A program made the position numbers and the translations under genes. A stretch of DNA of 60,380 bases, counting the filler, from Bonamia ostreae (Eukaryota): the NCBI GenBank assembly GCA_040357525.1. It is 11 parts of 11 records of this genome, joined end to end, with 100 filler letters (N's around TTAATTAATTAA, not from the genome) between each part and the next. Parts side by side here need not be neighbours in the genome. Positions count along the whole stretch, not along the records: positions 5,556 to 10,990 come from JBDODL010000195.1; 10 more parts are not named here. One strand, written 5' to 3'. Of this stretch, positions 6,859 to 59,724 are shown piece by piece. How positions within the stretch are numbered: position 1 is the stretch's first letter; each line of letters begins with the position of its first letter. Under the pieces are notes generated by a model. The model had not been told where the DNA came from, made no database searches, and saw nothing but the letters and a program-made list of their open reading frames with translations.

Positions 6859-9800
6859 ATGGGCGCGGATAAGGAAAGTTCCTCGCAAGCGGACAGGTTT
6901 TCTCAGACGATAAGCCAAAACATGGACGAGTTCGAAGACATTTTCTCGAGTGTCCCCGAAACCGCCGAATTCAGCCAAACCGATCCCAAAATCGGCGAAG
7001 CTGCGGAACACAAAAACAAGAAGCGGAAAAACAACAACAAAACTGCTCCTTTCGCAGACCAAACGACTCATTTTAACAACAAGGCCATTGACAAACAGCT
7101 TCGGATTTTAAAAATCCGCTATTATACTATCACGGACGTAAGAATAAGCTCTCAAAATATGGCTGAACAGTTGGAAATAACGGTCAAGGATAGAAACTCG
7201 GAGAGTTCAGCCACAGAAAAGCTGTTTTTGAGGGAAAATTGGGTTTCGACAAAATTCACAAAACAGGTCGACGCCATTTTCGCGAAGGGGGACAAGTTAA
7301 ATCTGGTGTCCATTGGCGACGGACCGACTCAGAATTACAACTGCGTCGACAACTCCAGCCCAAGCTTCGCCGTTCTGCACCCGGATCTGCTCATAAACAG
7401 CACCAGCATCTCGACGAGTTTTGACTGCGTCAGAAAAACGATCGTCTCCGAAACGTACAAGAACTACGGAATGACAAACAAAAACGCGTTGTTGGGATGC
7501 TTGGCGCACGAACTCTTCCAACAATGTCTCGAAAATAAGGTTTTCACCAAAAGCTTTGTTCTGCGGTCGCTTGAAGCAGTGATAACTCGGAACAGAATCG
7601 ACTTGTTTGATTTTGCAAAACTGAAAGATTTAGCCAAAATATAAATCGGGAGGAGGCCAACGCGTTTTTGCGGAAATACGTTGACCGGATTGCAAAATGG
7701 GGGCCTTTCTATTTTAGAGAGTCCCCGATTAAAAACAATTTGTGCATTGGGGATGTTTATGACATCGAAGAGCTGATACTCTCTCCGAATTTCGGTGTCA
7801 AAGGTGTTGCGATTTTTACTTTATTTCCCAATCGATTTTTACTTTATGCTTCCGACGGAAGTCAAAAAGTCGGAGCGCAATGTCGCCACCGAATATAATT
7901 TTTCCCAACGTGCGCTTCGGTTTGCGCCAGATAGCGCAGATATTCAAAGGCGCATGCGCAAGCTGGCAACGTCAAATAAAAAGCTCAATTTTTTTGAGAT
8001 TAACCTCAATTTTTTGGGATTTTTGAATGGCGAGATTAACCTCAGTTTTGAGCTCCAGTCATTAGCTGTGACATTTTGAGCTCCGGACATTAAATTTTTT
8101 TAGGTTAAGTTAATATTTTGTTTTTTGCGGTTGAAATTTTCAACGATTTGAAGCAAAACTGGACGCGTCCGTACAAATACACCACAACACGCGAAACCGC
8201 GGAAACTGCGTTGAAAAAACGAAACTGCTCGGACCGCTGGAAATTAAATCTGGTAGCGACTTTAGCAAGACATCCCATCGAGCACAAGTTCTCATTTACG
8301 GCCTCATTTTTTCTGACAAATATCAGGAGAGCCTGATTTCGTCTTCGCTTTTATACTATTTGTCGTCTGGAAATTTGGAGAAAATCAGTCCCAATATTCC
8401 GGAGCTAAATGCAATTTTTTGCAGNNNNNNNNNNNNNNNNNNNNNNNNNNNNNNNNNNNNNNNNNNNNNNNNNNNNNNNNNNNNNNNNNNNNNNNNNNNN
8501 NNNNNNNNNNNNNNNNNNNNNNNNAAAGATGAATTTTTTGCCTAAGATGATTAACAGAAAAAGTATTTGTGAACGCTGTTACGAAAACGATCGGTGTTTT
8601 ATCGCCAAAAAGGCTTTTGAAGACGAAGACGATTTTCTTCCGGAGCTTTTTAAAGAAAAAACAGCTTTGATTAACCAAAGTCTTTTTTACTAAATTTGGC
8701 TAAGAATCTTAAGCTTCGAATTTTTTTTATGTCGTTGGCGAAAATTTAATTTTATAGAATCGAAGGATTATATAAACAAATGGACAAAATTATTGCGATA
8801 CGAAAGCGCTGTCAACATTGCCAAAAACCGCAATTTAGCCAAGATTAATTTAGTTTTCTCAAAACTGGCCAAAACGCAATCCAATTCGAAAACAATTTTG
8901 AGATTTTCGACTATTAAAGATCAGCTAAAAAATTTTGATGAAACAACGATACAAAAAATATCGAAAGGCGACAAAGTGGTGATCAACATCCAAAATGGTC
9001 CGGTCTGTGTTGGGACCGGAACAGTTATAAAAAGAAGAGACGATTACGTTGAAGTGATGTCCGAGAACCGCATTAATGAAAAAATTCTAAACCGCTTCCA
9101 ACACAAAAATTTTGAGATTTGCCTGTCCGAAAACCGGGGCGCGTTTTCGTATTTACAAAATGTTCTTTTGTCCATTTTCGTCAACGATTCGTTTCACGAA
9201 CGCAAAAGGAAATTGATTGACAGAGTTTAAATTCGGGATTTTTAGATAATAAATCTCGAAATTCCAAAATTCCGCAAAATGGGAAAACAGAAAGTGGAAA
9301 GTTTGCTGAAAAAGTTGGATCTGTTTGGCGATTTCGCCAAATTAAACTTTAGCCAACAAAACGCAGTAACCAAATCTTTAGAAGTCGAGGATTATTGCCT
9401 CATTTTCGGAATGCCGGGCACCGGTTCTACTTTAGCGCTTTTTTCTAAATTTTAAAAATTTAGGGGCGACGGCTCAGTGGTTCGGTCCAAGTGCGCGCAT
9501 TCGTGCGTGCATGGGTTCGAATCTCGATGTTGTCGTTTCCAAACTGATCTCATTCAACTGACAATAACTAATATTCCCAACGACTATTTGCCTTAAAACT
9601 ATTTGAAAAAAATTAGGAAAATCGACGACAATAACTTTCTTATTGCAACTTTTAAACAAGTTGAAAAAGAAAGTGCTTGTAGCGACTTACACTCACAGCG
9701 CGTTGACCCATTTGCTGTTAAAACTCGCGGCCAAAAAAGTGCCGTTCGTTTACGCGGGCAAAATGACGCCGCAATGCGATTCTGTTGTAGCGGAAAATCA

Positions 9801-10937
9801 CATTAGAGCCATTTCTGATCGCTGCGATAAAGATCAGACTTTTTATCGCCGAATCGAAAACAATTTTGTTCGGACATTTAATTTTAAGCTTTGCAAATTT
9901 TTTGTATGCAAATTTGCTTTATTTAACAGATATTCGCAGCAACAAGTCTTTCTACGGGATCAAGTTTTCTCCAAAGTCAAAATTTCGATTATTGCATTAT
10001 CGACGAAGCCAGTCAAATGTCAGAAATCGCTTGTTTGGGCGGTCTGCGCTTAGCCGACAAATTCATTTTGGTTGGAGACCATTTCCAACTCTCGCCGTTG
10101 GTCAGAAGCGATGCTGCGAAACGCGCTGGGATGGAAATCAGTCTGTTCGAAAGACTTTTCGCCGAGCACAAAACAGTTTCGAATTTAAAGTTTAGTCGAC
10201 GATCGCTCTGACAAGTCAATACCGCATGAACTCCGACATTCTAAAATTGCCAAATAATCTTTTTTACCAAAATAAACTTTTCTGTGGAAGCGAAAAGGTC
10301 AAAACTGCCGTTCTATCAGTTGTTGCTTCTGAGACCAAAACAGCTTTGTTGCCGAAATGGCTAAAATCTGTTTTAAGCCCAAAAAATTCACTAATTTTTC
10401 TCAATACTGACAAAGTTTCGATTCTTAAAATCATTAAAGATGGAGGCGATAGAACGCAGAGAGAAGAACAGCGACAGGGAGATTATAATCAACAAAGGAG
10501 AACTTGTTGTGATCGAGAAGATTTTAGATCTTTTCGAAAGTGCTGGGCTCGCCAAAAGTCAAATTTCCGTTTTGTCGACTTACAAATCGCAGACGACTGT
10601 TTTCATTCTCACTCGATTTTGATATTTTTTATCAAGTGAAAATATTGGAACTAAAAAGTTTCTGCAAACCAAATTGTCAAAATACGGCGTAGAAATAAAA
10701 ACGATCGACAAATTCCAAGGCAGCGAGAACGACTGCGTTCTAGTTTCGCTAGTTCGCTCCAACGAAAAACAAAAATTGGGGAAATTGATTAAAAACAAAA
10801 AAAGACTCAACGTCGCAATTACAAGAGCAAAGAAAAAACTTATTCTAATTGGCTCTCTCAAAACTTTAAGAAGTGACCGCTTTTTGGAGAAAATGCTTCT
10901 TTTGTTACAAAAAGACAACAAGATTATCAATATTTAA
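6859..10937 (+). CDS. DNA2: DNA2 nuclease/helicase
   Basis: VLHPDLLINSTSIS..FDC, G.LAHELFQ, PLEIKSG, HRAQVLIY, GMPGTG^KST, DEASQ, LVGDHFQL, SLFERL, QYRMN, TIDKFQG, RLNVAITRAK. About 11 introns and one internal N gap. Confidence 0.95.
7869..8088. mobile_element. Possible MITE-like insert in a DNA2 intron
   Basis: Imperfect inverted ends gtcggagcgcaatgtcgc (7869-7886) and gtgacattttgagctccggac (8068-8088), inside an unusually long ~350-nt intron. Confidence 0.35.
9463..9547 (+). mobile_element. tRNA-derived SINE-like / Pol III element (most complete copy)
   Basis: A-box GGCTCAGTGG, B-box GGGTTCGAATC, hairpin GCGCGCA-TTCG-TGCGTGC. Homologous copies occur on other contigs. Confidence 0.75.
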
Positions 10938-11338
10938 ATTTTTTGCTTCTCAATTATACTTACAATAAATCTTATCTAGAAATGGCTAAANNNNNNNNNN
11001 NNNNNNNNNNNNNNNNNNNNNNNNNNNNNNNNNNTTAATTAATTAANNNNNNNNNNNNNNNNNNNNNNNNNNNNNNNNNNNNNNNNNNNNCCAAAAGAAG
11101 CAATATTTTGTACTATAAAAATTGTACTATTTTAATATTATTTCGCCCAACAGTGCGAGCCCTTACCACGTCATTTTACTTTTTAATTTGTAATGTTTTA
11201 CTCATTTGTAAATATTTTTAATTGTTGTCATTTCTCGACTGTTCGTCTCGAAAATGCTTTTTTTCTCGATTATTATATCTTAAACTGCAAAGACTAATAA
11301 AAGTTTAGACATTTTTGTTTTATCTTCAAGCGATAAAA

Positions 11339-12733: not shown

Positions 12734-13901
12734 ATGCAGCGAGACGAAGTTATCTGGAACGTCATAGGAACAAAGCACTGTTCTTTCCGCGCAAAGTTCT
12801 CGCCATTTTAAAATTTAGACAAAGGTCCCAAAACTTCTGCAGACACAAAAAGAACGCGACCGGAATCTGCGACAGACTTTCGTGTCCTTTGGCCAACAGC
12901 CGCTACGCCACTGTCCTCCATGGACGCGACGGAATAAGTCTTCACATCAAAGTAGTCGAAAGAGCGCACTCGCCGAATAAGCTTTGGGAGCGAGTCTTAT
13001 TGCCTGAGAACGACGCGGAGGCTCTAAAAAAGATCGAAAAAGAACTTTTGTATTGGCCGGAGAAATCGGTCGAGCGATGCAAAAAGCGATTCGTAAGAAC
13101 CAGACAATACATGAAGCGAATCGAAAAACTGAAGCGCAAGAATAGAGCGCTGGTCTTCGGAGTGAAAAAGAAGATCGAGCGCAGAGAAAAGCGTCGAGAG
13201 GAAAAGGCCCAGTTGGCGGCCAAAATCACCAAAAATATTAAAAAGGAATTAATAGAGCGACTTAATTCTGTTTATTTTTGCTTTTTTTTCGTAAATTTTT
13301 TTTTGTAATCAAAATTTACAATTTTTTTTGTAAATTACAATTTTTTCAATTTTTTTTCAAAATCGAAAATTTGTTTTTTTGAAAATTACAATTTTTTCAA
13401 TATTTCAAAAATCGAAAAATTACAATTTTTTCAATTTTTTTCAAAATCGAAAATTTGTTTTTGTAAATTACAATTTTTTCAATTTTTTTCAAAATCGAAA
13501 ATTTGTTTTTTTTAAATTAACAATTTTTTCATTTTTTTCAAAATCGAAAATTTGTTTATTTGTAAATTGTCATTTTATTTTCATTTTTTAAATTTTTTCA
13601 AAAATCGACAATTTGTTTTTTTTGTAAATTACAATTTTTTCCAATTCTTTTCCAATTTTTTTGAAAATTTGTTAAATCCGGCTAAAATTAAAGAATATCT
13701 ACGACGAAGAAATCGTAAACATACCGGCGAGAGAATACGATCGTGTTTTGGATGAAATGGCGTTGCCAGAAAATGAGTTTGTCGCAGATTTCGAGTCAGA
13801 AAACGACCTCGAAGACCGTTTTATATTTGCAAAGTTTAGTTGACGAAATGTTCGATGATATCGAAGCTGCGCAGAATGAACAATTATTACAGAAAAATTA
13901 A
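12734..13901 (+). CDS. MAK16: Ribosome biogenesis protein MAK16
   Basis: MQRDEVIW...HCSF, NFCR..NATGICDRLSCPLANSRYATV, ERAHSPNKLWE, RREKRREEKA. Three introns. Confidence 0.95.
13270..13693. repeat. Minisatellite-expanded MAK16 intron
   Basis: Degenerate ~40-50 bp units ttgtaaattacaattttttcaatttttttcaaaatcgaaaatttgtttt. Confidence 0.8.
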
Positions 13902-13976: not shown

Positions 13977-15443
13977 TCATTCTTTTTCTCTTTTAGAATA
14001 ATATCCTCCCAGCAGATTATCGTTTATCGTCAATCCCGGCATTGCGCCCGCGAGTCCTTCACTGACTTTTCTGATCACTTCGGGGTCCTTGTAGTCTTTA
14101 ACTGCCGCGACGATCGCCCCCTTTAAAACAATTCAGGTTTAGAAACCGCAGTGTCTTTAGGACTTTCGCTCTTGAAAATTCCGGATCCGACGAAAACGCC
14201 GTCGACTCCGAGTTGCATTAGCAGCGCCGCGTCTGCCGGCGTTGCGATGCCGCCGGCGGCGAACGTGACAACTGGCAATCTCCCCAGATCACGAGTCTTT
14301 TGGACAAGAGCTGTTGACACTCTGATTTCTTTCGCGTATTTTTCCATTTCTTTTGCAAATTTTTTGAAATTTAATTGTGTTTTGGCAAAATATTTGCGTT
14401 TCGACATTTTTTGAAATTTTATTGTGTTTTGGCCAAATTTAATTGTGTTTTGGCAAAATTTTTGCGTTTCGACATTTTTTGAAATTTTATTGTGTTTTGG
14501 CCAAATTTNNNNNNNNNNNNNNNNNNNNNNNNNNNNNNNNNNNNNNNNNNNNNNNNNNNNNNNNNNNNNNNNNNNNNNNNNNNNNNNNNNNNNNNNNNNN
14601 NNNNNNNNAAATTTTTGCGTTTCGACATTTTTTGAAATTTTATTGTGTTTTGGCCAAATTTTTAATGTTTTGGCAAAATTTTTGCATTTCGACATTTTTT
14701 GAAATTTTATTGTGTTTTGGCAAAATATTTACGTTTCGACATTTTTGAAATTTTTTGGCCAAATTTTTTATGTTTTGGCAAATTTTTCTAATTTCAAAGA
14801 TTTCCTTTTAAACTAAATGAAAAAATAATTATCCCCAAAATCAGAAAAACCGTTAGAGCTCATCGTCTTAAGTTTCTTTATTTGCTCGAAAACCGCTTTT
14901 GTGTGACGGACAGCTTCAACGACATTTCCGGTGCCGGCCTCGCCCTAAGAGATAAAGTCCAAACCTTTGTTCTTATCATTGCGGCGCCTTCTTCTATTCT
15001 TCGAAGCGCTTCCCCCAAATTTCTGCAGCCGCAAACGAAGGGCTTCTTGAAGCTCTTTTTCTCGATATGGGCTTCTTCATCGGCGATCGTGAGCACCTCA
15101 CTTTCGTCTATAAAATAGACTCGCATGGTCTGCAATATTTGCGCTTCGACAAAGTGGCCGATGCGGCACTTGGCCATCACCGGAATTTGAACTGCTTCGA
15201 TGATTTCCTGAATCAGCTTCGGATTGGTCATTCTGGCGACGCCGCCGTCTTTTCTAATGTCTAATCGTTTCAACGGAATAAACCGGATGGAACTCGCTCA
15301 AGGGCCATTACAGAGCATGCGCCCGCGTCTTCGGCAATTTTGGCTTGTTCAGCGTTAACGACGTCCATAATGACCCCGCCCACCAACATTTTGGCCATTC
15401 CGTCTTTGAGGTCAATTTCGTTTTGTTCTGTTTTCGAAGACAT
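13977..15443 (-). CDS. PDX1: Pyridoxal 5'-phosphate synthase subunit PDX1/SNZ
   Basis: [50 protein letters not shown]^[36 protein letters not shown]. Four introns (23, 20, ~500 and 26 nt). Confidence 0.96.
14350..14850. repeat. Minisatellite-expanded PDX1 intron (contains an N gap)
   Basis: Repeated ttttggcaaaatttttgcgtttcgacattttttgaaattttattgtg units. Confidence 0.85.
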
Positions 15444-17957: not shown

Positions 17958-18205
17958 CAATTTTTAGTTAAAATTCAAATGGCGAATCTTTATAGATAAA
18001 AATGGTAGAAATTTCAAAGCGTCGCCCGTTTTTAAAGAGACGGGATTAAAAAGTGGAGAGATTTGATTAAAAAACGGTCAATTTTTAGTTAAAATTCAAA
18101 TGGCGAATCTTTAGCTAAAAATGACAGAAATTTCAAAGCGTCGCCCGTTTTTAAAGAGACGGGATTAAAAAGTGGAGAGATTTGATTAAAAACGGTCAAT
18201 TTTTA
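17958..18205. repeat. ~120-bp tandem duplication
   Basis: Two near-identical copies of caatttttagttaaaattcaaatggcgaatc...gtggagagatttgattaaaaacggt. Confidence 0.85.
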
Positions 18206-22147: not shown

Positions 22148-22188
22148 CGAATGCGCCCACTTGGTCCGAACCGCTGAGCCATCGCCCC
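22148..22188 (-). mobile_element. SINE-like element copy (cut by contig end)
   Basis: GGGGCGATGGCTCAGCGGTTCGGACCAAGTGGGCGCATTCG matches 9463-9503 with 4 differences. Confidence 0.8.
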
Positions 22189-22214
22189 TTTTACATTTTT
22201 ATTTGACATTAATT

Positions 22215-22723
22215 TTATTTGACAAATGATTTTTGTTTGACAACATTATTTTTATTTAACACTGCATTTTTTCTGCTTTGCACAAATATATCTCCCGCTT
22301 GAAATATAGCAATCCGGCCATGAACGCGAGCAGGATTGCGTAAATCCAAATCACAATACTTGTGAATAAGAGGTTTAGCCCGTAAGACAAAACCGTTGTC
22401 GAAAGACAAAGGGAATATCCGATTATCTTTTTTTACGTTTGATTTCTAACAAAACAACATAAAGAACTTTCGCGATGTTTTTCTGGTTAGTCAGAAATCT
22501 GTCTCCGAACAAAAACATGAGCGTGCAGGTTATATGCAACAAAATGCTCAAGACCAGGAATATCTTCGCGGGGTAAAAACTCGTTGCCGAAATTATTAAG
22601 ACGGCGATACCGAATAACTTGATTTGATTTATAAACATCGCAAAGAAGAACGATCGACGAAACCAAAATCGATTGTGACAGTTTAGTTAATGTTTTTTTA
22701 AAGAATGTTTGAAACGAAACCAT
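22215..22723 (-). CDS. Small membrane protein, paralog A (C-terminally truncated; possibly a pseudogene)
   Basis: Hydrophobic N-terminal half, introns of 19 and 22 nt, shares a 277-bp near-identical block with paralog B. Confidence 0.55.
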
Positions 22724-23570: not shown

Positions 23571-24248
23571 TTAATAAGATATTATTATGAAAAACAACTC
23601 ATAAATATTTAAAATATGTAACATATTCAAGTTGATTTGTATTAAAATTACTTTATAACAGTTATTCATAGCCACATTTGATACGAACATTGCTTTCGAG
23701 TTTTCAACCGAAACGCTTAAATCAAGGATTTTGGTACGACTGCTTAAATTTCTAATAAAAATCAGCAAATTATATTTGGAGAAGACAATTTTTGAAAAAA
23801 TCATGATTCTATTTTTTCTGCTTTGCACAAATATATCTCCCGCTTGAAATATAGCAATCCGGCCATGAACGCGAGCAGGATTGCGTAAATCCAAATCACA
23901 ATACTTGTGAATAAGAGGTTTAGCCCGTAAGACAAAACCGTTGTCGAAAGACAAAGGGAATATCCGATTATCTTTTTTTACGTTTGATTTCTAACAAAAC
24001 AACATAAAGAACTTTCGCGATGTTTTTCTGGTTAGTCAGAAATCTGTCTCCGAACAAAAACATGAGCGTGCAGGTTGTATGCAACAATATATTTATAATC
24101 AAGAAAATCTTCATACGATAAAACAATATCAATGAAATTATGAAAACTGCGATGCCGAACAACTAACTTTATTTGATTTATAAACATCGCAAAGAAGAAC
24201 GGCAGATGAAACTAGAATCGATTTTGAAATTGTTTGAAGGGAATCCAT
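23571..24248 (-). CDS. Small membrane protein, paralog B
   Basis: MDSLQTISKSILVSSAVLLCD^LFGIAVFII...; introns of 23 and 22 nt. Confidence 0.6.
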
Positions 24249-33504: not shown

Positions 33505-33529
33505 CTCGGTGTTGTCGTTTCCAAACTGA
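33505..33529 (+). mobile_element. SINE-like element 3' fragment
   Basis: ctcggtgttgtcgtttccaaactga is 24/25 identical to 9523-9547. Confidence 0.6.
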
Positions 33530-33757
33530 CGCAACATAAAAATATTTTATGTCGGTTTATCTGAACTCCCAATTTGACTGATATTGCTCCATAACTTGAA
33601 TGTCTGCGCTAGACAATGGACGGTTTAATAAACCGCCAGCTTGTTTTATTAATAAATCGCTCGCCACAACCTCTTTTCGAAGCGTTTGGCAATTTATTAT
33701 TGTTACAATTGTACATGTACATAAATATATATAATGTCTGATTCGGCAAAATTTGCT

Positions 33758-33790
33758 GCACTTAGTTCGAACCACTGAGCCACCGCGCCC
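33758..33790 (-). mobile_element. SINE-like element 5' fragment
   Basis: GGGCGCGGTGGCTCAGTGGTTCGAACTAAGTGC. Confidence 0.7.
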
Positions 33791-38652: not shown

Positions 38653-39884
38653 TAGTTTTCCAATTGGATTTTCTTAAATTTTTATTTTTTTCAAGATTGA
38701 TTAGATTTGATTAAATTTGTAAAAGAAACAAAAAATATTTAGTTTTTCTTGATTTGTCTTCGTTTGTAATATAAAATAATTTTGTCAGAATAGAGACTAA
38801 AAATTGGCTAAAGAACCAATACAAAAATATATTTAGCAATTTTGTTCTTATCTCAAAATCTGTTTTTGAAGAAGATAAATTTGGAAGCCATTTTATCGAA
38901 CTCAATTTTATTTTATTTGAAATTTCTGAAATCCTTATTTTGCCATCTTTTTTATTATAAAATTTTTTCCGTTTTAAATTTTATTTAAATAAAAACGCAA
39001 ATCCATTTTTATAAAAGACGAAACGGATTTCGTTAATTGGCGAAAATTTTTTTTGGAGCCCAAAAAATTTTTTGGGAAATTTCTAATTATTGGAAAATAA
39101 AAACTGTTTGATAATTCTGTAAATTAATCTTATAACAAATTTATGGCTAATTTTTAATTCTGTAGATTGGTTTTTATTAAAATTTAGCATTTGTTTTGCG
39201 ATTTTGCCGTAATTTATTTTTTTCGATTTTTCTTCAAATCGCTTTTTATAAAAATTTTGGAAATAATTTGCAAATTTTAACCTGATTAAATTTTTTTATG
39301 TGATTTAACCGTTTTTCGTTTTTAATAGAATCGATGAAAGAAGTAAATTTTGTTAATTTTTGAAAAACTGTTTTAAAGTACATTTTATCTCGTTCAATGA
39401 CAAGATTTTTCTTGTTTTTAGATTTAGTCGTTTTGCCAAATTCCAATTTCCCGGATAATTGCAAATAAAAAATCGATTTGTCGTTTTTTCCCAATTTTAA
39501 ATAAATATTGTTGTCCAGCAATAATTCTAAAAATTCCTTTTTCTGTTTTTATTAAATTTGAACTTTCATAAAAACAAATGTTAAATAAAAAACAAAAATA
39601 TCCAGAAAATAATCAAATTGCTTTATTTGGCAATTTTTCTGGAAAAAATTCCTTAAACGCGCAAACAAAATATTTTCGTCAAAATTTTTTTCTCCAAAAT
39701 TCTTGGGAACCAAAACAACAAAATCATCAAAACAGCCATTCAACAAGTCATTTTTATCTGACGATTTAATCGATTTTATATTAACTGAAGTTTTAAATTC
39801 TTCGTATTTTTTAGGATAAAGACGTTCAAAATGGTCGCCTAAAGTGCAAAACCTTTTGTTGCCAACAAAAATAGAGAAATCCAA
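38653..39884 (-). CDS. TERT: Telomerase reverse transcriptase, N-terminal TEN + TRBD (3'-partial; start unresolved)
   Basis: GQ-like IYLKL...YLQLSGKL; IERDKMYF; QFP-like VIRLIYRIIKQ^NFPKNFLGSKKNFRQL..SVSSFI; SSIKWL; T-motif FLYWFFSQFLVSILTKLFYITNEDKSRKTKYFL^KSNWK. Confidence 0.8.
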
Positions 39885-44145: not shown

Positions 44146-45591
44146 TACGCCAGTTCGAAGGCTCTTTTTTTCGAGTTTTTAGTAAAGTAAACAATAATTT
44201 CAAATCAAATTTCAAATCGATCAATTTTAAATCATTTTTTTGATCGATCGTTTTTAAAACAATTTTACGTCAAATCGATCAATTTTAAATCATTTTTTGA
44301 TCGATCGTTTTTAAAACAATTTTATTTCAAATCGATCAATTTTAAATCATTTTTTGATCAATCAATTTTATTTCAAATCGATCAATTTTAAATCAATTTT
44401 TTGATCGATCGTTTTTAAAACAATTTTACGTCAAATCGATCAATTTTATAACAATTTTATTTTAAATCGATCAATTTTAAATAATTTTTTGATCGATCAA
44501 TTTTATAACAATTTTATTTCAAATCGATCAATTATAAAATAATCTTCTATTAAAAAAACCGGAAACTTGATTTCTCTTATATTCCGAGGATTTTTGGGTA
44601 TATCGACAGCCGCCTCCCTCAACCTACTCGCCGCTTTAACTTCCATCTCTTCATTTTCATTTTCACGCAAAGCGATAAAAGTCAGATCGGTATAATCGTT
44701 CTCCATCACAACCTCTCCCGGAAAAGATTCGTTCAAGTGATTGACGATGGTCACCATTTTCTTTTTGTCCGCGGTCGTTAAGCAGTCCTTCACAGCATGG
44801 CCATTCGTCGCCACCATCACTGTTCCGTCCGACAAACGGAAACTGTAACCCGTCGAAGCTTTCTGCTGAAATTCCCCTTTTTGCCAAATGGGAGATCCGA
44901 CCGGTTTATCATAAAAATTGCACACGATCCGGACGATCATTTCACTCGGAGGAACGTAATCTTTTATTTCTGCGACAGAAACTGGTTCTTTTTGAGTGAG
45001 AGAAGGATCATTTTGTTTGGGAGCAGGATCATTTTGATTGGGAGCAGGAGAATCTGAATTGAGATCAACAACGACTTTTTGAGGAGGAGCATTGATAACT
45101 GAGGAAATTTTGTGAGGAGGAGCTACAACAGGAGCCTTCTTCATTTTGGGTTGGACAATTTTCTTTTCAAATTGTTGAAATTTGGTCGTTTTGGATGAAC
45201 TTTCATTTACAATTTTTCCAACGCGTTCTTTGGCCGACATTGTCAGATTTTGTTCTTTGGGCGAATAGTCGAGATTGTTCAGTTTTGGTCGCCCGGTAAT
45301 CGGTTTGTTTGAGAGTTTTAAGTTGATGTTCTTCTGCGAATTAACGAGATCGGTTTTTACGTTGATTTTGACGTTTTCGGTTTTTTGTGGTTCGAAGCCG
45401 TTATAATCAAAATTTTTTAAATAGTTGTTTTTTTGTGGTTCGGGAGCATTTTTAGGTTTAAAATCGTTTTGTTGTTTTTTAAGCTCTTCGGGGTTTTTTG
45501 ATTTCAAGTTTAAGGCTCTTTGGTTTTCCAAAACCTGGTTTTTTGAACCAGAAATATATTTGGAATTGGGGTCGTAATAATATAGCACCAT
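44146..45591 (-). CDS. Deg/HtrA-like trypsin serine protease, paralog 1 (3'-partial)
   Basis: STGYSF, ATNGHAV (His), ENDYTDLTFI (Asp); colinear with paralog 2; long N/K/P-rich N-terminal extension. Confidence 0.75.
44195..44535. repeat. GATC-rich minisatellite in the protease intron
   Basis: Repeated aaatcgatcaattttaaatcattttttgatcgatcgtttttaaaacaatttta units. Confidence 0.85.
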
Positions 45592-46123: not shown

Positions 46124-48319
46124 TTATTTGCTCGGTGAAACCATTGTTACATGATTATCTTTAAATTCCAGAGCTGCAACTTTCTTCTTGCAAATTGCAC
46201 ATGTAACAAATGTTTTGCTGATTTCGAATTCACACAAGTCTCCGTTACAAAGACAACGTTTTCTGCTCAAAAATTCAGAACATCTCAGCTGCAAAGTCAT
46301 TCCTGTTTCCAAAGCCATTTTAGCGTTTTCATCTTCAAATCTGTCTTCGTTTAAAACGATTAAATTTCCATTTGCGAATTTTATTCGTATAAATTTGCGT
46401 TTCTTGTTCTGAACGGGTTGTTTCAATGCGATCGCTGCTTCTGCCAAATTGCGAGGTTCAATGCCATTTATCTCTTTGATAATAGCGTTATGGTGTGGCA
46501 TATATTTGATCGCATTTGAGGTGTTGCCCGTTACGCGAAAAACTAACGCGGTTTCATTTTTGTATCTTTTCTTCCCCTCTACGAGCGCGTGGAGTTCGTC
46601 AACCGTAAAACTTTTTGTTTGAATGTCCTCCATAAACATTTCTAGCGACAATGGTCTTATTGTCTGCCCAAGTATGTCGATGTAGCTTTTATTATATGTT
46701 CATTGTTACCACAGCAATTTTACAAAATCAGCTTTGGGATAACTCTATTGACCAAAAACAGTTTATTGTTGCTAATACACAAAATAAAAACTCATTGTTA
46801 TCTTCATTGAAATACTTAGCCACAAGATCATTAGTAGAACCGCAACGATGTTTGATGTTGAATCTTTTCGTAATTCCCTTTTCTGTGCGCACTACAGTAA
46901 ATTCGAGATTCGGATTCATTTCAGTCAAAAGAATGCACAGCGCTCTAAAATCAAATGGAACTCGTTCAGTATTATCTTCGAAGGCATTGACGAGAACAAC
47001 ACCTCTTTCGTTCAATCCTAAACCTTCGACTTCGACAATTACGTCATCCGCCCTTAATTCTCGGCAATCTTTGACGACTCTCATTCCTTTTTCTTCCGGT
47101 TGCAAATGGTAGAATGAAGCTTCGTCCTCAGTTTCGACACCTTGTAAAGTCAGGTTGGTTTCAAGTTCGCCCATTCTTACGAAGGTGGACGTGTCGTTTC
47201 CTGAAAGATTGATATATCTGCAAATGCACACTTCTAAAACGACAAAGGGCTTTTTAAATTATTGATATTTTAAATTTCAAAGAAGACGCTTCTATAAAAA
47301 CGATGATAAAATAGTTAGATTCATATCCTTCGAAAACAATCCCGATAATTATCCCGTCTTCATCAAAAACTGGTCCACCACTGTTACCACTTGCCACAGC
47401 TATTTTCTAAAAAAATAAAACTGGCATCAATGCTAATAGTGATCCCAAAATAATCTTTGTGAACGTAAATGTTATCTGAAATCGATGTAATATTGCCATG
47501 TGTCACAGTCAGTTGTTTTTGACCGCAAGAGTAACCTTTTATTGTCACAGGCATCCCAATTTTCTTTATTTTGACAATGTCATTGTTGATTTTTGCAGAT
47601 TTGCAATTTTAATAAAAATTGACTGAGAATTTAATAAAAATCTTCAAAATTTTAAAGCAAATAACCGGAAACTTGATATCTCTAATCGACGGTATTCTTA
47701 ACGAATCGAGAGGAACCGCTACATCCTTTATTTTATTTAAAATCCTCAGAATACTTTTATCCTCCAAAGCAACCGGCCGAACGAATGCAATATCAATGTA
47801 ATCGTTTTCCATTACCACCTTCCCATCAAACTTCTCATCTTCATGCGTCATTACGGCAACTATTTTTTCTCCGTTATCTCTTGTTATGCAATCTTTTACT
47901 CCATGAGCATTCATAACAATAATCAATTCATGGTTTGGCAGTTTGACCGCAAATCCTGTTGATATTTTCTTTCCTTCGATCTTTTTTTCCCATACTTGGC
48001 CCTCTGGTGCTGTAACCAAAATAGGGCAGTCAACGCGTACTATTAAGTCGCTTGGCGGCATATAAGACTTTCTCATGACGCATTTTGTTGATTCTGTTTT
48101 TTTCGGAACATGTACATCGCTTTTTTCAATCAGTTTGTCAATAGGAGGTTTTAAGGCTGGAGCCTTGTTCATTTTGGTGTTTTTTAAGTGTTCATTTTTC
48201 TTTGAAATTGTGAAATCAGGTTGTTTGTTTTTTAAGTGTTCATTCTTTAATATTTTGTTGTCGTTTTCGCCATTTTGTGATCTAAATTTTGAGCTTGTAT
48301 TGTAAAAATAAGTGTGCAT
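46124..48319 (-). CDS. Deg/HtrA-like serine protease with PDZ-like region, paralog 2
   Basis: STGFAV, MNAHGV, DIAFV, GY..G...LTVTHG.I, IDA^TVASGNSGGPV, YFII^P, LRADDVIVEVEG, IKEING. Four introns. Confidence 0.85.
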
Positions 48320-52288: not shown

Positions 52289-52360
52289 GCGCATGTAGTC
52301 TAGTGGTTAGGATGTGCCCTTGCCATGGGTGTGACCCGGGTTCAAATCCCGGCATGCGCA
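52289..52360 (+). tRNA. tRNA-Gly(GCC)
   Basis: Acceptor stem GCGCATG/CATGCGC, D-loop TAGTGGTTAG, anticodon loop TTGCCAT, T-arm CCGGG-TTCAAAT-CCCGG, TTTTT terminator immediately after. Confidence 0.95.
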
Positions 52361-57847: not shown

Positions 57848-58469
57848 TTTTATGATTTGCGATCTTAATAAAGTTTTGAGTAAATGGATTAAGCGAGTTG
57901 TTCAAATAGATTTTCCCAAATTTTTTTGTTTTGTATCATCAATTTTGTACTCCATTTTTGGGTAGCGGAAATCTCTCAAGACATTAAAAGCGGGACACAA
58001 CTTAAGTTGTTTTGGAGTGCACGAACCGATGCTCAACCATCGCCTCGCGCAAGGATGGCATTTAGTGGGTCAGGTTTCAATTATAGTCGCGCAATTAGCC
58101 ACAGGGCTTTTTGCCACTCTGCCGTTAATTAGAGAGACAAAACTTACTTTTAAACCACAATTTTTTTAATAGAAAACAAATTTAAAAAATATTAAACGAG
58201 TTCGAATCAACGGAAACATCCGTCATCCCTCCTCTAGCGGATGTATAAGAAAAAATTGCGGTATAAATAGATTTGAAACATTAAAATTTTAAACATTGGT
58301 ATTTTAAACATTTTAAACATTGACATTTAATTAAAAATATTTCTTATATCTTGAGGGAGCGAACATGGAGGGCGGGTTCTCCCTAGCACACAAAACAAAA
58401 TAAATTAAAGAAAGAATAAATAAATGAAAAAAAGAATTAGACGAACAATTCAGAGAAAATTTTAAAAAT

Positions 58470-59355: not shown

Positions 59356-59642
59356 ATATTTAAAAAATTTCAATAATCTGAAATAAAAACGAGATTACTC
59401 TCCGTGACAACGACAATAACAATTATTGTTTCAAAAATAAATACTTATTTAGTTAATTTTATTAATTTCGACAAAGATGCGCTTATAATAGAATTAATAA
59501 GCTTTCATCTTTGGCGTTTACTAATCGAAAACGCATTTTTTAATTTGGAAAATGAGGCTAACGACCCTGAACTGACCGTGCATCGTCAAGCGCAGAAATT
59601 CAATTTTTAGGGGGAAACTCAGAAAATTTATCAGTTCAAAAA

Positions 59643-59724
59643 TCTGGTAACGACAGTACCGGGATTTGAACATATGCAAGCACGAAGGCGCATACTTAGT
59701 TCGAACGACTGAGCCTTTGCACCC
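59643..59724 (-). mobile_element. SINE-like element, diverged near-full copy
   Basis: GGGTGCAAAGGCTCAGTCGTTCGAACTAAGTATGCGCCTTCGTGCTTGCATATGTTCAAATCCCGGTACTGTCGTTACCA is colinear with the 9463 copy. Confidence 0.7.

Follow-up and report, generated by a model that had tools for sequence, protein, structure and literature searches.

What is the short repeat, faintly reminiscent of a tRNA, that recurs on separate contigs of the oyster pathogen Bonamia ostreae and is best preserved within an intron of a Dna2 gene? The element lies at 9463-9547(+) of a stretch of 60,380 bases from this haplosporidian (hereafter the window), which consists of 11 contigs of ~5.3-5.5 kb each, with a few internal gaps, joined by N44-TTAATTAATTAA-N44 linkers. 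We consider it probable that the element belongs to a new family of short, non-autonomous repeats of the SINE (short interspersed nuclear element) type in the nuclear genome of B. ostreae. Judged by its letters, the GC-rich head of ~85 nucleotides (nt) looks like a worn tRNA, with acceptor-like ends, boxes A and B of an RNA polymerase III (Pol III) promoter and CCA-like letters after the terminal stem. The place of the anticodon arm is taken by a hairpin of 7-9 base pairs (bp) with a TTCG loop, and the head is followed by a variable linker and a body of ~64 nt.

The size and spread of the family are apparent from public sequence sets. A 2466-base stretch around the copy at 9463-9547 (copy 1) served as probe; nine public runs contain part of it and four contain at least half of the sampled words. 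Four runs were aligned to this stretch at 80% likeness, namely X1 (DNA contigs), X3 (RNA contigs), X7 and X13 (raw DNA reads). The 87 records of X1 pile up on the element, with summed depths of 188 and 144 in two bins over 9438-9603 against 9-12 beside it (15- to 30-fold). Similarly, the 43 records of X3 reach summed depths of 10173 and 9563 over the element against 1229 beside it. Loose ends at 9547-9552 in the contig sets lead into unlike flanks, and this combination of a pile-up on the element with unlike flanks indicates a real dispersed family. The abundance proposed in the first-pass annotation of this DNA, made from the sequence alone, is thus borne out (188 against 12 in X1, 10173 against 1229 in X3). 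Nor is the family confined to host or contaminant DNA, since the window copies lie in contigs with parasite genes and the intron that holds copy 1 is spliced in X3. The X1 records fall into likeness classes of 6, 17, 32 and 32 at at least 99%, 95-99%, 90-95% and below 90%, a spread that suggests copies of mixed age. Because summed contig depth is not a copy number, we take these depths only as tens of distinct copies at at least 80% likeness. X7 contributes no more than one other copy of the element and the 3' end of Dna2. The 1.38 billion letters of X13, which bears the same organism label as X1, yielded one read on the stretch and none on the element.

Copies within the window share several diagnostic segments. 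Copy 1 carries an A-box-like GGCTCAGTGG, the hairpin GCGCGCA-TTCG-TGCGTGC (9493-9510), a B-box-like GGTTCGAATC and the tail TGTCGTTTCCA, all of which read in the sequence as first described. The 22-base 5' motif GGCTCAGNNGTTCGNNCNAAGT has four window matches, at 9471, 22159(-), 33760(-) and 59694(-), where none is expected, and none of 100 shuffles contains any match. The tail TGTCGTTWCCA matches exactly in three copies (9531, 33513 and 59645(-)), which upholds the shared 3' tail noted earlier; with one mismatch allowed there are five matches against 2.1 expected, a count reached by 7 of 100 shuffles. An nhmmer search with a profile of the copies returns 9463-9545 (E 1e-25), 59724-59642 (E 8e-25), 33790-33746 (E 6e-10), 22188-22148 (E 3e-9) and 33505-33526 (E 0.004). 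These four heads and the 3' piece at 33505 are the related copies on four contigs that the first-pass annotation had listed, and TTCG is present, as it stated, in three of them (copies 1, 2 and 4).

The individual copies differ in completeness. Copy 1 (head 9463..9547(+)) is the best preserved: it has A/B-box-like motifs and a 9-bp TTCG hairpin, and CCA-like letters come after its 11-bp terminal stem. Copy 2 (22148..22189(-)) comprises the first 41 nt of a head, 37 of them identical to copy 1, and is cut by a contig end, the one contig end of 22 that falls inside the element. Copy 3 (33746..33790(-)) is a GAACTAAGT variant head that is decayed after ~45 nt. A 5'-truncated copy at 33505..33624(+) consists of the last 25 nt of the head (24/25 identical), a 25-nt insert and a body, which matches the body profile at E 5.5e-26, a value obtained with this copy itself included in the profile. 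The decayed copy 4 (59575..59724(-)) joins a head at 59724-59642, identical to copy 1 at 60 of 79 positions, to a T5 run and a body that ends in ...ACGGT. At ~47135..47215(+), a likely degenerate copy with internal deletions is suggested by a local alignment of 19/24 that 7 of 1000 shuffles match and by a collinear tail TGTCGTTTCCT at 47192, while its nhmmer E-value is 0.79. Another degenerate copy, once suspected at 58021-58046, does not hold up: nhmmer does not list it at E<=10, and 89 of 1000 shuffles equal its local alignment. In total, the window holds four heads and the 5'-truncated copy, with the likely degenerate one as a sixth. These 5-6 copies measure 25-150 nt and are spread over 5 of the 11 contigs, at about one copy per 10-12 kb across 59 kb. 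We further note that at 33505-33790 the 5'-truncated plus-strand copy and the head-only minus-strand copy converge within 290 nt, downstream of a kinase gene; the pair could reflect two insertions into one small spacer or one rearranged insertion.

Beyond these sets, matches to the short motifs look unrelated. The 5' motif occurs at 45 loci in JGI metagenomes, all of them GC-richer, and none of the 45 is alike beyond the motif. A single motif match in viral contigs is likewise unrelated outside the motif, and prokaryote genome contigs contain no match to the 3' motif.

The extent of the unit is greater than the ~85 nt of the first-pass annotation, and its estimate is corrected here. After the head and variable linker, copy 4 and the 33505 copy share a common body of 64 columns, which opens with TGAACT and closes with ACGGT. 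A three-way alignment gives copy 1 an abbreviated form of this body, the probable remnant at 9548..9587(+), which is shorter than the bodies of the other copies and matches the body profile weakly (E 0.26). In the contig sets, other copies diverge from copy 1 at the loose ends at 9548 and 9552, and most continue past 9552 with common sequence. Indeed, the loose-end consensuses of X1, X3 and X7 show a common continuation after AACTGATC. The body behind the head and this shared continuation suggest a full unit of ~150-200 nt, the 3' end of which is defined by two copies.

Within the head, the two box-like segments agree closely with Pol III promoter elements. The textbook consensus is TRGCNNAGTGG for box A and GGTTCGANNCC for box B; the head matches box A at 11 of 11 positions when 9470 is T and box B at 10 of 11, and the two boxes start 44 nt apart, a tRNA-like spacing. 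Copy 1 itself has C at 9470. The change to T, which brings back the usual first letter of box A, is found in 6 X1 contigs (depth 61.3/99.2) and in copy 2. Copy 1 departs from the family majority at several letters, 9470 among them; at 9486, 15 X1 contigs have A in place of T (depth 163.7/176.1). Two head subfamilies had been proposed, and the X1 contigs contain both: G>A at 9485 occurs in 5 of them (depth 51.5/176.1) and C>T at 9488 in 10 (depth 116.1/176.1), while copies 3 and 4 carry the A/T form at these positions. Boxes A and B are treated in the SINEBase description as no more than an indication of a Pol III promoter (PMC3531059).

The head of copy 1 is predicted to fold as a rod, not a cloverleaf. 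Its 79 nt fold at -40.1 kcal/mol (z -4.9 to -5.2) into an 11-bp terminal stem, a segment in which box A pairs with box B, and the 9-bp hairpin capped by TTCG. All 30 rod pairs form in copy 1, nine of them G·U, and the opposite strand of the head reaches -19.2 kcal/mol (z -1.8). A fold that works on one strand only, through G·U pairs, points to an origin at the RNA level and away from a DNA palindrome. Copy 4 retains 19 of the 30 rod pairs with no compensated pair, and its fold is no better than that of shuffles (z -0.27). This loss suggests that individual copies decay and that single loci are not under selection for the fold.

A rod so stable in one copy raises the possibility of structured Pol III RNA genes with a panhandle form, like vault or Y RNA, accompanied by retro-pseudogenes. 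A few loci of the copy 1 type would then be genes for a functional rod RNA of ~85 nt, with the decayed copies as by-products. We regard this as unlikely. In its favour are the complete pairing of copy 1 at a z near -5 and the strand-specific fold through G·U. Like vault and Y RNAs, the head would give an RNA of ~80-100 nt with its 5' and 3' ends paired in a long terminal stem; vault RNA carries box A on its 5' strand and box B on its 3' strand. The hairpin variants listed from X1 and X3 also mostly keep pairing. C>T changes at 9494, 9496 and 9506 stand opposite G; one G·U pair is affected both by G>A at 9495 and by T>C at 9508, and another by T>C at 9512; G>A at 9507 and C>T at its partner 9496 are found in 3 X1 contigs each; and one X3 contig retains the hairpin with another loop (loose end 9503). 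C>T and G>A are, however, the commonest neutral changes at CpG sites, and since these pair-keeping variants lie at such sites and their counts are unlinked within molecules, they prove little and amount to no covariation test. Several observations tell against the proposal. At E<=10 no family in Rfam matches, those of vault and Y RNA among them; no T-run terminator follows the stem of copy 1, which is located within an intron; of the 30 pairs, 11 are gone from copy 4; and the family comprises tens of decaying and truncated copies with a shared body downstream of the head. The element is thus most likely an ordinary mobile repeat of the Pol III type and not a gene for a new functional RNA.

A related idea links the two readings through descent. 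The head may go back not to a tRNA but to an undescribed, rod-shaped Pol III RNA of haplosporidians, characterized by the 11-bp G·U-rich terminal stem, the box A-box B pairing and the UUCG hairpin; such an RNA, perhaps still made from a few intact loci of the copy 1 type, would then be the source of a SINE family that may be the first reported from Rhizaria. We hold this ancestry to be speculative and quite improbable.

Tests against models of known RNAs place the head outside the functional tRNAs and the known Rfam families, as the first-pass annotation anticipated. ARAGORN calls only a tRNA-Gly at 52289 in the window and nothing at the element down to the 80% threshold; at 70% its only further calls are 'tRNA-???' with 2- or 4-letter anticodons, which are meaningless. 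Searches of Rfam at gathering scores likewise find only the tRNA-Gly and nothing at the element. A cmscan of 9400-9620 at E<=10 returns only SAM-II (E 0.49) and tRNA-Sec (E 3.7), with no match to vault or Y RNA, and the Rfam searches with the element give no 5S or signal recognition particle RNA match at E<=10. We treat these tRNA-Sec and SAM-II matches, together with T-box (E 0.49) and group II (E 3.4), as chance-level, and a snoR20a match (E 0.2) at the edge of one search is gone when the whole region is searched. The head has a hairpin loop of 4 nt, where a tRNA has a 5-bp anticodon stem with a 7-nt loop, and tRNA models reject it. The sole tRNA gene called in the window, Gly-GCC at 52289-52360(+) (62.9 bits), has a T5 run directly 3' of it, which suggests the use of conventional Pol III terminators.

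These results also bear on whether the copies could be plain pseudogenes of one unusual cellular tRNA or tRNA-like gene, with no self-propagating SINE lineage behind them. The tRNA-like layout, the acceptor-like pairing followed by CCA-like letters, and a T-arm in copy 4 that is identical to the tRNA-Gly over 13 nt would all agree with such an origin. Yet the copies share traits that a tRNA lacks, namely the hairpin that stands in for the anticodon arm, a further five bases ahead of the 3' acceptor strand, and the body, and they far outnumber the single tRNA gene in 59 kb. Shared features of this kind separate SINEs from RNA pseudogenes in the SINEBase description (PMC3531059). We therefore consider simple tRNA pseudogenes very unlikely.

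The SINE-type reading accounts for these shared traits in one scheme. Pol III would start at the internal boxes, and the transcript would adopt the rod fold, with many G·U pairs holding it together. This RNA would be copied into DNA by a reverse transcriptase (RT) encoded elsewhere in the genome, and new copies would land in the scarce non-coding DNA (introns, untranslated regions (UTRs), spacers) and then decay neutrally. The 33505 copy, which begins at head position ~61, shows the 5' loss that incomplete reverse transcription would produce. Non-coding dispersal, graded divergence, subfamilies, a head joined to a body, a 5'-truncated copy, a one-stranded structure and neutral decay together fit a SINE-type retroposon. 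The window copies are also short (<1 kb), interspersed and non-tandem in the SINEBase sense.

The layout of a tRNA-derived head with a body of unknown origin is the commonest among SINEs, with 41% of families in the SINEBase account (PMC3531059). The Bonamia element resembles such SINEs in being short, interspersed and numerous, in its 5' head with boxes A and B at tRNA spacing and an unrelated body, and in having subfamilies, truncated and decayed copies, and intron and UTR sites. It differs from them in that its window copies show no simple-repeat or A-rich tail, its head falls below the threshold of tRNA models, and neither a target site duplication (TSD) above chance nor a partner LINE (long interspersed nuclear element) is found in the window. 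A GC-rich tetraloop hairpin in place of the anticodon arm, a rod in place of the cloverleaf, and a rhizarian parasite as host set it further apart. SINEs of squid and salmonids reportedly keep CCA after their tRNA-related region, and in the Bonamia family CCA-like letters likewise stand directly after the acceptor-like 3' strand in three window copies and one X7 contig. The first C can also pair with G1, so the letters may have an origin other than the end of a mature tRNA.

Several findings weigh against the SINE-type reading. In the RNA contigs the element is seen only as part of longer transcripts, one example being a record of 1809 nt, and no discrete small RNA appears among them. The best score in the Rfam tRNA clan is 13.8 bits (E 3.7, copy 1), with nothing for copies 3 and 4. 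The head aligns to the window tRNA-Gly, the one tRNA compared, with 36 of 54 columns identical (67%), over a length under the 60 nt of SINEBase, which states at least 60% identity to tRNA, 5S or 7SL RNA over at least 60 nt (PMC3531059). No window copy has a poly(A), A-rich or simple-repeat tail. The flank alignments that might represent TSDs are equalled by 166, 391 and 1478 of 2000 shuffles and are not significant, and the best candidate overlaps the motif TTTTGCCAAATT, which is common throughout the window (19 sites against 5.1 expected). Copy 3 is 3'-truncated and as such is not a direct product of target-primed reverse transcription. Finally, Pfam finds no RT, endonuclease or transposase domain in the 231 open reading frames (ORFs) of at least 70 amino acids in the window, of which 226 were scanned as stop-to-stop ORFs and 5 as ATG-ORFs. 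The LINE RT relics and the TSDs that had been invoked or sought for this family thus do not materialize here. The only RT-related match among the ORFs is a telomerase RNA-binding domain at 38714-38980(-) (Pfam E 3.6e-14), which may be what had been taken for RT relics. It stands at a contig start, and the RT part of the gene would fall off the contig.

The same absences of a poly(A) tail, a demonstrable retroposon-type TSD and a LINE in the window would suit a non-autonomous DNA element similar to a MITE (miniature inverted-repeat transposable element), or a repeat spread by recombination, in which the likeness to tRNA promoter boxes is incidental. The near-palindromic head and the two copies that converge head-to-body at 33505-33790 also lean this way, and in common with MITEs and introner-like elements the repeat is short, numerous and hairpin-forming and lies in introns of a compact protist genome. 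However, the palindrome works only as RNA of one strand, given the difference between -40.1 and -19.2 kcal/mol. Pairwise BLAST finds no inverted copy of the copy 4 head at the 3' end of copy 4, so that the ends of the full unit bear no terminal inverted repeats, and the candidate TSDs serve this reading no better. No transposase domain occurs in the window, and cut-and-paste transposition does not leave a 5'-truncated copy. We accordingly judge a MITE-like or recombination-driven origin improbable and retain the SINE-type retroposon as the preferred reading.

The insertion site of copy 1 illustrates how such a repeat sits in a dense genome. Copy 1 lies in sense orientation in a 193-nt GT..AG intron at 9424..9616(+), which an X3 RNA contig skips (9422->9616). 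This intron splits the Walker A motif, with the upstream exon ending in GMPGTG and the downstream exon resuming with KSTTI, in a gene identified as Dna2 by matches to the Pfam families Dna2, AAA_11 and AAA_12. The other five introns of the gene measure 78, 62, 60, 25 and 20 nt. Subtracting the 85-nt head from 193 nt leaves 108 nt, and subtracting ~125 nt (the head with the weakly supported remnant at 9548-9587) leaves ~70 nt, a length usual for introns of this gene. The excess over the sister introns therefore fits an insertion of 85 to ~125 nt into an ordinary intron. An introner-like origin of the intron was considered and set aside: 40 nt of intron precede copy 1, so the element does not supply the splice sites.

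In the same gene, segments of 20 nt (10176-10195(+)) and 25 nt (10415-10439(+)) are missing from the spliced X3 RNA contig. Both start with GTTTCGA and end with AG, and the Dna2 helicase frame is regained once they are dropped. Their form suggests ultra-short spliceosomal introns alongside ordinary ones of 60-78 nt, and gene predictors may miss introns of this size.

The surrounding DNA agrees with a compact protist host, as first supposed. The window has a GC content of 33.5%, and its contigs are eukaryotic and gene-dense, with Pfam scans identifying Dna2, a CHD-type remodeller, Mak16, PDX1/SNZ, UFD1, MCM, RFC, a kinase and the telomerase RNA-binding domain. The PDX1 ORF at 14881-15297(-) has as its top protein match Snz1, filed by NCBI under Bonamia ostreae, whereas a protein search with a CHD fragment did not help to place the organism. 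Table 1 of the ascetosporean genomes paper gives 33.3% GC and 4.3% repeats for a B. ostreae assembly (PMC11069148).

Other repeats occur alongside the family. The motif TTTTGCCAAATT, counted with at most one mismatch, has 19 sites that none of 100 shuffles reaches; they include 27534, 39431, 59733(-) and a cluster at 14428-14784, and the excess is due in part to a tandem array at ~14.36-14.79 kb. The motif could be regulatory or part of a satellite. Local duplications or tandem repeats are found at 22266-22678 with 23811-24227, 17958-18205, 13282-13673 and 44209-44546, the largest being a duplication of 417 nt at 90% identity whose copies lie 1.5 kb apart on one contig. At the end of the second contig, over 10932-10990(+), summed contig depth rises to 1288 in X1, from ~9 beside it, and to 11483 in X3, and 10 loose ends fall at 10958. 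This is apparently the start of a different and more abundant repeat, in which the contig ends and of which the window has no further copy.

A full-text literature search found no paper that links Bonamia, Haplosporidia, Ascetosporea or Rhizaria with SINEs. The main text of the ascetosporean comparative-genomics paper contains no occurrence of SINE, tRNA, retrotransposon or polymerase III, and the supplement files searched contain no SINE, LINE or reverse-transcriptase terms (PMC11069148). The de novo repeat library of that study may already contain the family as an unclassified repeat.

For repeat biology at large, such a family is routine; what is unusual is the hairpin that replaces the anticodon arm and the strongly one-stranded rod fold. 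If confirmed, it would mean that a highly compact parasite genome harbours a Pol III-type retroposon, and it would account for some assembly breaks and for one oversized intron. In addition, it would offer a multi-copy, parasite-specific target for sensitive detection, and the presence or absence of individual copies would provide markers to type isolates of an economically important oyster pathogen.

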